The notes under the pieces are model-generated. The model saw only the letters and a list, made by a program, of their open reading frames with translations, ran no database searches and was not told the origin of the DNA. A stretch of 64,000 bases of DNA from Shigella phage SH-2, in sequence record PQ642267; one strand, written 5' to 3'. Below, one piece after another: positions 16,500 through 27,711 of the stretch (the first letter of the stretch is position 1; every line of letters starts with the position of its first letter). The position numbers and the translations under genes were made by a program.

Positions 16500-16820
16500 T
16501 TATTCTTTAAATCTAATCAATTTATTCATAGACTTTGTAACTTCTGCACGAACCTCATGTAGGTTTTTAAGCTGTTCAAGACGCTGCTCATAGTAAGCAA
16601 TTTCATCTTCTTCGAGACAGTCCTGCGAATCTTCTTTAAGATAACGTGCATAGTCCTGGAAAGCTTTACGGACTACTTCCTGGAAGTCATCAAGACTTTG
16701 AATTTTCTTAGGAGCAACAGATACACGACGAGGGGCAGTATAATACTCATAACCAAACCCTGCGCTTAATTGAGCCATTAATATTTTTCCTCTGGTTGGA
16801 ACACAGCACGACAAGCCCAC
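16500..16820 (-). CDS. hypothetical protein (106 aa)
   Basis: ORF track only. Confidence 0.4.
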
Positions 16821-17044
16821 ATACTGGCTTCTTTGAGTTTCGTTTTAGCAATAGTTAACTGATCAAGACTTTCAGCATAATTCTTCGCGAATTCACAGTC
16901 TTCACAATTATCTAGTGCTTCCCAGAATTCATCATATAAAGCATCAAAGATAAGTCCTAAACGAACTTCAGCATCTTTGATAGCATTCACTTTACCGATT
17001 TTCTCTTCAGTATGTGGCTTATAACCCTTAATATCTTCAATCAT
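16778..17044 (-). CDS. hypothetical protein (88 aa)
   Basis: ORF track only. Confidence 0.4.
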
Positions 17045-17258
17045 ATTTTACTTCCTCACCAGTACCTAAATCATATTCAACTAAACGAATAGGTTCATGA
17101 ATGCCATATCCCTGAACAGTGATATCGGTTGTCGGATATTTTCCGGTAATATCACCCATTCTAAATGCTTCAATGAATGATTGCTCGCCTGAATTACTAA
17201 ACCACTCGGCGAAAGCATTTAGCACATCTTTAGAACCTTCAATAATTATCTTTGCCAT
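17037..17258 (-). CDS. hypothetical protein (73 aa)
   Basis: ORF track only. Confidence 0.4.
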   Translation of the reverse strand: MAKIIIEGSKDVLNAFAEWFSNSGEQSFIEAFRMGDITGKYPTTDITVQGYGIHEPIRLVEYDLGTGEEVKYD

Positions 17259-17620
17259 TACAGACTCTCGGTAAAGGTACGAGCGATAACGTCGCGCTGC
17301 TGTTCCGGAGTCAGAGAGTTAAAGCGAACTGCATAACCGGATACACGGATGGTCAGCTGCGGATATTTTTCCGGATGCTTAACTGCATCTTCCAGAGTTT
17401 CACGACGCAGAACGTTAACGTTCAGGTGTTGACCACCTTCAATTTTAACTGTAGGTTGTGTTTCAATTTCAATTTCACGGGCATGCAAACCGTAGAAAAT
17501 TTCCGGGTCTACAAAAGAGTCCTCTTTAAAGGTTTTAGAGACAATAATTCGTGCTTGAATACCATCTTCAAAATAAATAGTACCTTTATGCGTGCCTTCA
17601 AGAATTTGATATGCTTTCAT
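17258..17620 (-). CDS. autonomous glycyl-radical cofactor (GrcA/YfiD-like; T4 Y06I-type)
   Basis: C-terminal ...[59 protein letters not shown] with the RVSGYAVRF glycyl-radical motif; ATG at 17618-17620 (track start is TTG). Confidence 0.75.
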
Positions 17621-17628
17621 ATAACCTC

Positions 17629-17958
17629 TCAATTAGAAAATAAATTTATCCAAGATTGCTCTTTAATTAAAAATGGCTCAGAATCATATGCCATTAAACT
17701 TTGGGTGATTAGTCCTTTAAAAGGTCCATCAATAAATTCCATGGTAAAATATGGAATTTTATTCATTAATCTTGCATTAGGAGCAGTACACAAAACTCTG
17801 CATCCTTTGAATACGCCTTTTTGTAATTTGTATTGCTTAGGATAAAATTCGCTCAAGACGTTGTTATTTGCCAAAATTTCAAAATGATTCACCAATTTAT
17901 TTTTAATAGTTTTTGGCGAAAAATAAAGATATTCGAAAAGTTGCGTGTCTGTCATCAT
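17629..17958 (-). CDS. hypothetical protein (~109 aa)
   Basis: ATG at 17956-17958 overlaps upstream stop (ATGA); track start 18009 also ATG. Confidence 0.4.
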
Positions 17959-18497: not shown

Positions 18498-18645
18498 TTT
18501 ATTCTCTCTAAATTTGGGCCATTCCATGGCGCATGAATTGTCCATTTCTGTATTTACCCATTACCGCACTTGGGCTCGACCTTATTACAGGTTGGCGGGA
18601 ATCCCTCACAGAATCATGAGGTCCAGCTTGTTCCCATGTTATTTG

Positions 18646-18712
18646 AATGTAAATATTTTTGCCGTAATACTTGTACCAGTGTGGCTTTATTAAAATTTTT
18701 TCATCGAGTCAT
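18646..18712 (-). pseudogene. denV remnant: start codon fused to 3' terminal ~65 bp of denV (reads ATG ACT CGA TGA)
   Basis: 18646-18710 identical to 19421-19485 (denV 3' end); preceded by a copy of the denV promoter/RBS; junction at shared ACTCG. Confidence 0.6.
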
Positions 18713-18721
18713 TTTACCTCT

Positions 18722-18767
18722 CCAAGTAATTATGAATATACTATCACAATTTTAGGAGAAAGTAAAC
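18722..18767 (-). promoter_or_regulatory. early promoter/RBS repeat, copy 2 (46 bp, 3 mismatches vs 19844-19889)
   Basis: Minus strand GTTTAC...TAGTATATT then GGAGAGG SD; duplicate of denV upstream region. Confidence 0.55.
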
Positions 18768-18769
18768 TG

Positions 18770-19072
18770 TTATTTACCTTTAATTACTTTAGCTGCTTCG
18801 ATAGCCGCTTGCTGAAGGTCATCCATAGACATACCGAATTTAGAAGCAAAGTTATCAATTTTCTTTTCGACAGCATTCAAAGGCTTGGCCTGTTTACCTT
18901 CATTAGCACCAGGAAGAGCGAGAATACGCTCTTTGTCAATATAAAGGCTTACAAGTTTCTTACGGTCTTTATCGGACAAATCATGAAATGAATGGGCCTT
19001 TTTATTTATAGCGGCTTCTAATTTACCTGCACTCACTCGCGCTTCAGTAATAAATTCTTGATATGTTTTCAT
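18770..19072 (-). CDS. internal head protein, IPII-like (100 aa, capsid-targeting leader MKTYQEFITE)
   Basis: N-terminal leader with predicted gp21 cleavage site after ITE; 100 aa as T4 IPII. Confidence 0.65.
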   Translation of the reverse strand: MKTYQEFITEARVSAGKLEAAINKKAHSFHDLSDKDRKKLVSLYIDKERILALPGANEGKQAKPLNAVEKKIDNFASKFGMSMDDLQQAAIEAAKVIKGK

Positions 19073-19090: not shown

Positions 19091-19408
19091 TTATTCTTTA
19101 GGGAAGTTTTTAGAATATGCATCATAAAGCTTATTTCCAATACGGCGGAAAACTCTAGCCGCAAAACGATTTTCTGGGTTTTTAATCATGATTTGCATCA
19201 TATAAGTACCCGCGTCAGAAAGAGCTTCTTCATAGTACCCATTAATTTCTTTAAGAGTCCTACGTTTACCACCAGGACCATCAACAGTAATTTTCCATTT
19301 ACCTGTAGAAGTGCGGCTCGGTGGCTCAACTTGTTCAATCCAAATATAACCTCCTTCTACACGTTGTCCTTGGGCAGATTCTGCAATAAATTCTTTATAC
19401 GTTTTCAT
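19091..19408 (-). CDS. internal head protein candidate (105 aa, leader MKTYKEFIAE)
   Basis: Same leader class; body not recognised as T4 IPIII (194 aa in T4). Confidence 0.6.
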   Translation of the reverse strand: MKTYKEFIAESAQGQRVEGGYIWIEQVEPPSRTSTGKWKITVDGPGGKRRTLKEINGYYEEALSDAGTYMMQIMIKNPENRFAARVFRRIGNKLYDAYSKNFPKE

Positions 19409-19417
19409 ATGTTTCCT

Positions 19418-19834
19418 TTAAATGTAAATATTTTTGCCGTAATACTTGTACCAGTGTGGCTTTATTAAAATTTTTTCATCGAGTCGTTGTTGACTCAATT
19501 TAATAGCTGATTTGCATGGGTTATAATCATTTTTCCATTCTACTGGAATATCGCTGATGTCAGGAACTTCAGTGTCTTTTATACTGAACCCGCGTTTTAA
19601 GCATTCCATTATAATGTCTGATTGACGCTTTCGCAAAAATTCTAACTTGTCGTAAAAGAACGTAACATGACCAGAACCTAAAATAAACTCGGAAGATATT
19701 TTAAAATCTTTAACCCGCTTACCATTTGCCACGTGTTTACGAACTATACCAAAAACGCGTGGCAATTCACGGTATTCTGCGATTAAATGTTGATCAGCAA
19801 GTTCAGATACTAAAGTCAAATTAATACGAGTCAT
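19418..19834 (-). CDS. denV: endonuclease V (pyrimidine-dimer DNA glycosylase)
   Basis: 138 aa starting [17 protein letters not shown]...[10 protein letters not shown], recognised as T4 endonuclease V. Confidence 0.85.
19421..19485 (-). repeat. 65-bp direct repeat, copy 1 (denV 3' end); copy 2 at 18646-18710
   Basis: Exact 65-nt match read from the sequence. Confidence 0.8.
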
Positions 19835-19843
19835 TTTATCCCT

Positions 19844-19889
19844 CCAAGTAACTGTGAATATACTATCACAATTCTAGGAGAAAGTAAAC
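19844..19889 (-). promoter_or_regulatory. early promoter/RBS of denV (repeat copy 1)
   Basis: Minus strand GTTTAC...TAGTATATT...GGAGGGATAAAATG. Confidence 0.55.
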
Positions 19890-26754: not shown

Positions 26755-26830
26755 TGGTCGAGGCAGTAGGGATCGAACCTACGACCTAGGACTTAGAAGG
26801 TCCTTGCTCTTCCTTCTGAGCTATGCCCCG
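26755..26830 (-). tRNA. tRNA-Arg (anticodon TCT), CCA encoded
   Basis: Manual fold: acceptor CGGGGCA/TGCCTCG, D-arm GCTC/GAGC, anticodon loop CTTCTAA, T-arm GTAGG-TTCGATC-CCTAC, 76 nt. Confidence 0.8.
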
Positions 26831-27624: not shown

Positions 27625-27711
27625 TGGTGCGAGAAGTGGGACTCGAACCCACAAGGAAATCATTCCGCAGCATTTTAAGTGCTGTGCCTTTACCAATTTG
27701 ACCATTCTCGC
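27625..27711 (-). tRNA. tRNA-Leu (anticodon TAA), class II long variable arm, CCA encoded
   Basis: Acceptor GCGAGAA/TTCTCGC, anticodon loop CTTAAAA, T-arm GTGGG-TTCGAGT-CCCAC, 87 nt. Confidence 0.8.

Follow-up and report, generated by a model that had tools for sequence, protein, structure and literature searches.

A host-identical block in the 3' half of vs.6, the glycyl-radical cofactor gene of a T4-like Shigella phage

Why does a virulent phage carry a small stand-alone glycyl-radical protein whose C-terminal half reads like that of its host, and how has that half come to look so? The question is raised by a 120-codon open reading frame in Shigella phage SH-2 (sequence record PQ642267), of which one stretch of 64,000 nucleotides, hereafter the window, was analysed. 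The frame lies on the minus strand and runs from an ATG at 17620-17618 to a TAA at 17260-17258. The ORF call returned exactly the limits given in the original prediction, which had been made from the letters alone. A TTG at 17632 was considered as an alternative start and discarded, since the ATG at 17620 has a Shine-Dalgarno sequence and agrees with the T4 annotation. The gene, its parts and its neighbours are listed in Table 1, together with their identity to the genus Mosigvirus.

Table 1. Features of the vs.6 locus in the window, and identity between the window and Mosigvirus where compared.
Feature	Position	Strand	Basis or remark	Window vs Mosigvirus
vs.7 3' end				70-72%
Shine-Dalgarno GAGAGG, 4 nt 5' of the vs.6 ATG, overlapping the vs.7 stop codon	17625..17630	-	read from sequence	
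vs.6 coding sequence (120 aa + stop)	17258..17620	-	T4 identity, synteny, PF01228, TIGR04365	
Phage-type N-half of vs.6, codons 1-59, GC 34.5%, GC3 22%	17444..17620	-	distant homology to GrcA residues 1-66	88-91% (dS 0.31-0.35)
Host-identical island, 172 nt, gene nt 179-350 = E. coli grcA nt 200-371	17271..17442	-	100% identity	
Block interior				98-100%
Glycyl-radical loop RVSGYAVRF, aa 92-100	17321..17347	-	translation, 6OWR and PFL alignments	
vs.6 3' tail, three synonymous differences from E. coli grcA (17270, 17267, 17264) and stop	17258..17270	-	varies between phage lineages	
vs.6 last 15 nt				80-87%
vs.5, next gene downstream, translationally coupled to vs.6 by ATG/TAA overlap (TAATG)	17037..17258	-		79-80%
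vs.4 counterpart, 88-aa ORF	16778..17044	-		62-65%

The window belongs to Tequatrovirus. The 2.2 kb around the gene are 96-97% identical to many Tequatrovirus (T4-like) genomes, and the order regB-vs.3-vs.4-vs.5-vs.6-vs.7-vs.8-denV is that of T4. Its place within the regB-denV segment, with vs.7 on one side and vs.5 on the other, together with near-identity to T4 Vs.6, puts the frame in the T4 vs.6 orthologue group. Scans for promoters and terminators around vs.6 gave background levels only, and Rfam returned no RNA family in the vs.6 region.

Several features of the surroundings deserve mention in their own right. The vs.4 counterpart, two genes downstream of vs.6, is labelled Acb2 (anti-CBASS protein 2) in close relatives. 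Upstream of vs.8 lies a 126-nt composite repeat (18642-18767), in which a copy of the end of denV is joined to a copy of the denV leader: one part is 97% identical to the last 72 nt of denV and the other 92% identical to the denV leader (19417-19488 and 19827-19889). The repeat copies flank denV and two small ORFs (18770-19072 and 19091-19408), which begin MKTYQEFI and MKTYKEFI, respectively, starts that we take to resemble the capsid-targeting sequence of T4 internal proteins. In T4, unlike in the window, denV stands directly beside vs.8. The repeats around denV look like a recombination scar of the shuffling of internal-protein cassettes. Over the whole window, Rfam found only two tRNA genes (26758-26830 and 27628-27711, both on the minus strand). 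T4 carries a cluster of eight tRNA genes, and the window phage may have a reduced tRNA region.

What is the protein? It shares 118 of its 120 residues (98.3%) with T4 Vs.6, also called Y06I (NP_049730), for which RefSeq gives the name 'autonomous glycyl radical cofactor GrcA'; 'autonomous glycyl radical cofactor' is likewise the annotation in many close relatives. Aligned by BLASTP with E. coli GrcA (WP_000627804), it shows 74 identities in 100 positions, and these are distributed very unevenly. Residues 61-120 equal GrcA 68-127 at every position, which bears out the expectation that the last ~60 residues, with the RVSGYAVRF loop, are those of enterobacterial GrcA. The N-terminal half had been called divergent, and so it is: residues 22-60 are ~35% identical to GrcA, still recognisably homologous. 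The radical glycine, G95 (encoded at 17336-17338), corresponds to GrcA G102 and PFL G734 in the alignments with 6OWR and PFL, and the nine-residue loop around it does not vary among the 16 phage and bacterial sequences that were aligned.

The family assignment follows the same division of the protein. The Pfam Gly_radical domain (PF01228) is matched over residues 60-101 with E=2.2e-18 and 67.2 bits, against a cut-off of 22.2. By a wide margin, the best NCBIfam match is the GrcA equivalog TIGR04365 (IPR011140), whose score of 154.6 bits falls below the cut-off of 170 because of the divergent N-half; all the NCBIfam matches are PFL-type enzymes. In the PDB, GrcA (6OWR) is matched with E=4.6e-42, and phmmer aligned PFL residues 697-759 to residues 58-120 of the phage protein with ~78% identity (E=4.8e-26). 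Its stand-alone size of ~14 kDa, its RVSGYAV loop and its C-terminal mimicry of PflB 693-759 are those of the GrcA/YfiD group. We are therefore confident, if short of certain, that this frame is a Tequatrovirus orthologue of T4 vs.6 (Y06I), encoding a stand-alone glycyl-radical domain of 14 kDa and of GrcA/YfiD type, and this confidence extends to the mode of action discussed below and to a 3' half overwritten from the host.

That the similarity to the host reaches the DNA is the main result. Nucleotides 179-363 of the gene (185 nt) are 98.4% identical to grcA in each of the 5,426 complete E. coli genomes searched, and within them nucleotides 179-350 match without a single difference. Immediately 5' of nucleotide 179, the nucleotide similarity to grcA falls abruptly to background. 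Counted by the method of Nei and Gojobori over the 56 interior codons, dS between window and E. coli is 0 (none of 42.3 synonymous sites). For the same codons, E. coli differs from Citrobacter by a dS of 0.40 and from Salmonella by a dS of 1.2. Base composition changes along with identity: the block has a GC content of 49.7% and a GC3 of 44%, the corresponding part of E. coli grcA also has 49.7%, and the window overall has 35.8%. The original prediction had derived the glycyl-radical module from the host and had accepted that low nucleotide identity to grcA throughout the gene would speak for an old phage gene instead. The profile along the gene, with the 172-nt exact run and the absence of synonymous change, upholds the host origin of the module.

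Which host, and which gene? Outside E. coli the block is less similar, with 92% identity to grcA of Citrobacter amalonaticus, 84% to that of Salmonella enterica and 86% to that of a Klebsiella MAG. The longest exact run shared with a genome of an Escherichia cryptic clade is 77 nt, as against 172 nt with E. coli. When the whole 64-kb window was compared by megablast with the 5,426 complete E. coli genomes, no match was found besides the grcA block and a weaker one to pflB. The latter covers the same segment at ~80% identity; for the first 25 kb, each genome gave a second matching place, which appears to be this pflB. The donor is grcA and not pflB, since the block is only ~80% identical to pflB DNA. 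The N- and C-terminal parts of E. coli grcA have diverged about equally from other enterobacterial orthologues; therefore, grcA is native to E. coli, and the phage was the recipient.

The island encodes the structured glycyl-radical domain. Residues 1-66 of GrcA, the counterpart of the phage-type N-half, form the disordered region of the GrcA NMR structure, and the island starts at GrcA codon 67, thus covering essentially the structured domain. At the other end, the exact match gives way to the short 3' tail. A gain of a Shine-Dalgarno sequence was considered as the cause of the differences there (GAA AGC to GAG AGT creates GAGAG before the vs.5 ATG) and rejected, as this reading is not general: T4 itself retains GAA.

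Was the block acquired once, or renewed from the host time and again? Four genes from Tequatrovirus were compared with five from Mosigvirus. Between the genera, the block interior has no fixed differences and 11 polymorphic sites, as against 11 fixed differences and 16 polymorphic sites in the N-half (Fisher p=0.016). At the synonymous substitution rate of the N-half, the chance of finding no synonymous difference in the block between the window and Mosigvirus RPN187 would be ~1e-6. Moreover, in both genera the private substitutions of single phages start out from the E. coli sequence. Together, these three observations make the block younger than the split of the genera, even though its junctions are shared. 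The absence of fixed differences in the block, despite a dS of ~0.3 in the N-half, suggests, without proving, repeated gene conversion templated by the host.

We give slightly more weight to the view that this conversion is ongoing, with the chromosomal grcA available as a template at each infection of E. coli, than to its rival, although we put it at somewhat less than even odds. The gene itself is an old phage gene, the 3' half of which was overwritten in Tequatrovirus and Mosigvirus through homologous recombination with the chromosomal grcA of E. coli. The T-even recombination machinery may then have reset the block interior to the E. coli sequence repeatedly and in separate genera; beyond usable homology, in the N-half and the last 10-15 nt, divergence would take its normal course. 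The most economical sequence of events would be an ancestral replacement that fixed the junctions, followed by recombination with host grcA that reset the interior while the edges kept diverging. Two variant E. coli grcA alleles (O157:H7 NE122 and H9) have one differing site each, and neither variant occurs in the sampled phages, which are a small sample.

It is possible, although we lean against it, that the 3' half of grcA was instead captured a single time, recently, by one T-even lineage and was then spread from phage to phage into both Tequatrovirus and Mosigvirus with no repeated recombination with the host. The 5' junction falls at the same nucleotide in all nine genes examined. T-even phages recombine readily. 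The two genera also resemble each other more in the N-half (88-91%) than in the flanking genes (62-80%), which fits exchanges seeded at this locus. However, the island ends exactly at the limits of host homology on both sides, and the N-half and the last 10-15 nt retain genus-specific differences. Exchange between phages would have no reason to stop at the edges of the island, because phage homology runs on into the flanks. That private substitutions start out from the E. coli sequence in either genus likewise argues against a single capture and for the repeated, host-templated conversion to which we give slightly more weight.

What would the phage gain from the protein? No spare-part proteins other than YfiD and T4 Y06I have been validated (PMC8683613). 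Y06I is an autonomous glycyl-radical cofactor that reconstitutes PFL fragmented by O2 (Wagner et al., 2001, PMID 11444864), as that work is related in PMC8683613. PFL-AE installs the glycyl radical, and the activated spare part joins PFL cleaved at G734, whereupon activity is restored; residues 61-127 of YfiD have the fold of PFL 693-759, and its residues 1-60 are disordered and yet promote binding and radical installation (PMC8683613). Since Vs.6 of the window is identical to Y06I at 118 of 120 positions, both the gene and its function are already known.

For the window phage, the following course is proposed. The phage probably makes Vs.6 during infection, to judge by its intact translation signals and its conservation. 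The host PFL-activating enzyme PflA would take hydrogen from G95, as has been shown for Y06I and YfiD and is expected here from 98% identity. Residues 61-120 would then dock into PflB after its cleavage by oxygen at G734, as Y06I and YfiD do in vitro, and the docked domain would replace the lost radical loop and C-terminal helix, so restoring the conversion of pyruvate to acetyl-CoA and formate. By analogy with residues 1-60 of YfiD, the disordered, phage-specific N-half probably aids binding and activation. The likely benefit would be a continued supply of fermentative energy and acetyl-CoA in oxygen-exposed gut hosts after host shut-off; the phage may bring its own spare part because host gene expression stops after infection. 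The original prediction had the protein rescuing oxygen-damaged enzymes during anaerobic infection. The rescue holds in vitro, for PFL, through the near-identical Y06I; the setting has to be changed, as it would be oxygen-exposed fermenting cells rather than strict anaerobiosis.

Could Vs.6 serve the phage's own NrdD, whether by lending it a spare radical domain or by partnering the activase NrdG, rather than the PFL of the host? A role in nucleotide metabolism was proposed for vs.6 on the basis of the shared Pfam domain (Nolan et al., 2006, PMC1524935), and that proposal is part of the case for NrdD. A match in Aeromonas phage PX29 falls under the features vs.6 and nrdG, so that the two genes are adjacent there (nrdG, which adjoins vs.6 in that phage, encodes the anaerobic ribonucleotide reductase activase). 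We nevertheless consider such a role very improbable. The module is identical to that of GrcA and ~78% identical to PflB 697-759, and the 34 PDB matches with E<=0.01 include no chain of a class III ribonucleotide reductase. Structures of T4 NrdD exist in the PDB. Furthermore, the biochemistry of Y06I, in the account given by PMC8683613, is that of PFL and PFL-AE.

Even less credible is a competitive decoy that soaks up PFL-AE or binds PflB unproductively and so lowers host fermentation. The N-half, which governs binding and activation in YfiD, is indeed what differs from the host protein. However, Y06I restores PFL function as YfiD does, at least as reported in PMC8683613, and the catalytic module is kept identical to that of the host, which would be superfluous in a decoy. 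A spare part for host PFL thus stands as our reading of the function.

How widespread is the gene, and does it carry host DNA elsewhere? Homologues of vs.6 were found in 1,588 phage records. The phages concerned include Jiaodavirus, Karamvirus, Slopekvirus, Pseudotevenvirus, Krischvirus, T4-like phages of Aeromonas, T5-like Demerecviridae and jumbo phages. All the representatives examined retain almost the same C-terminal residues, with a nucleotide identity to E. coli grcA of only 64-87%. In the homologues of Slopekvirus, Pseudotevenvirus, Jiaodavirus, Krischvirus, the T5-like and the jumbo phages, dS ranges over 0.8-1.8 against every host copy that was retrieved. Synonymous sites can thus vary freely while the residues are kept, which makes the family an old one among phages, with its C-terminal residues under selection. 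Accordingly, C-terminal amino-acid identity taken by itself is no evidence of recent capture.

A second island as clear as that in vs.6 was not found in comparisons with Salmonella, Klebsiella and Pseudocitrobacter. Searched against all phages, grcA of Salmonella enterica gave a best identity of 83.8%, and the matches at that level are blocks of the E. coli type; no equivalent island was found for Salmonella. The grcA of the Klebsiella MAG reached at best 90-95% in 15 records, an ambiguous result obtained with a MAG copy as query rather than with grcA of K. pneumoniae itself. The block of Jiaodavirus 17-11 is 93.7% identical to Pseudocitrobacter grcA, with an exact run of 56 nt. RB49 and the T5-like phages, which infect E. 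coli and have copies that are far diverged, show no island. The absence of an island from far-diverged copies fits a homology-dependent process, although it does not prove one.

Some phages do without an intact gene. In Dhakavirus JS98, vs.6 is absent from the syntenic site, and neither blastn nor tblastn found a remnant in the 14 kb searched (record 56000-70000); a vs.5-like ORF directly abuts vs.7 there. Not all of the T-even relatives that infect E. coli, therefore, have the spare-part gene. In RB55, a T4 isolate, a 13-nt deletion (CGGTTATGCAGTT) in vs.6 removes the codon of the radical glycine and shifts the frame; the gene bears no annotation in the record. At codon 73, RB55 has the host-like CGT and T4 has CAT. 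As the absence in JS98 and the deletion in RB55 show, vs.6 is dispensable in some lineages. Other arrangements were also seen. In the Salmonella phage SPC35 and in Aeromonas phage 31, the homologue stands directly after tRNA genes. In Escherichia phage vB-Eco-KMB39 (OR539219.1, 59733-60147), the match is broken into two pieces that span 415 nt, as against the usual 360, and the record has two CDS there, which suggests an insertion or a frameshift.

The near-invariance of the C-terminal 60 residues in all phage and bacterial homologues, together with the pattern of 64-87% nucleotide identity in most phage genera, might be taken to mean that vs.6 of the window is likewise an old phage gene, host-like through purifying selection for its fit to PFL and PFL-AE and with no recent exchange, a reading that has almost nothing left in its favour and is refuted by the 98.4% identity in all E. 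coli genomes, the 172-nt exact run and a dS of 0 over 42 synonymous sites where other lineages with the same residues are saturated, by the step in GC3 from 22% to 44% at the boundary and by the ~1e-6 chance that window and Mosigvirus would show no synonymous difference at the N-half rate.

How much of this is new? The vs.6 gene, its family and its biochemical activity have been known for T4 since 2001, and vs.6 is among the ORFs conserved in all the T4-like genomes available to Nolan et al. (2006, PMC1524935). As an identification, the result is thus a correct annotation, not a discovery; its modest added value is evolutionary. In the literature searched, no prior description was found of the base-for-base identity between the 3' half of vs.6 and E. 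coli grcA, and an earlier mention is possible; the mosaic origin of the gene has possibly been under-reported. The island is the sole stretch of the 64-kb window with nucleotide identity at the level of the host, its limit falls within a few codons of a protein domain boundary, and it is common to two genera otherwise diverged by a dS of ~0.3. If recombination with the host has indeed been repeated, vs.6 would offer a simple and experimentally tractable system for the flow of DNA from host to virulent phage, and would show how a phage keeps its spare part matched to the host enzyme that it repairs. If the process is gene conversion, a chromosomal gene of the host and its counterpart in a strictly virulent phage with modified DNA would be evolving in concert, and the block would serve as a built-in record of the phage's evolutionary host.

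The closest known system is T4 Vs.6 (Y06I, NP_049730) itself, which is equally long, is likewise flanked by vs.5 and vs.7, and shares the E. coli-identical 3' block. The two proteins differ at residue 54 (T in the window, P in T4) and at residue 73, where the window has R, the host state, and T4 has H; the synonymous pattern of the last 13 nt also differs. E. coli GrcA (YfiD, 6OWR) is likewise a small stand-alone protein with an N-terminal region followed by a glycyl-radical domain, with 172 nt of DNA in common and, as for T4 Y06I, a documented rescue of cleaved PFL. It differs from the phage protein in the N-half, which in the phage is ~35% identical, seven residues shorter, AT-rich and of phage codon usage, and the phage protein scores below the GrcA equivalog cut-off (154.6 vs 170 bits). 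The genomic seats are different too, as the gene lies between vs.7 and vs.5 in the virulent phage and between ung and eamB in E. coli. The C-terminal domain of PflB (693-759; 2PFL, 1H16), the part that is replaced, shares the fold element, the RVSGYAVRF loop and ~78% of residues over 63 positions; PflB differs in having a catalytic barrel of ~690 residues, which the phage protein lacks, and in its DNA, which is only ~80% identical.

For the evolutionary process, the nearest parallel is psbA of cyanophages, in which intragenic recombination between host and phage has been described (Sullivan et al., 2006, PMC1484495). In both cases, a metabolic gene of a phage swaps segments with its host homologue and becomes a mosaic with host-like patches. 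The window phage differs in being a T-even phage of enterobacteria, virulent and with hydroxymethylcytosine in its DNA, and the patch in vs.6 is a single, sharply bounded block of 172 nt that shows zero divergence from the host and corresponds to one structural domain.
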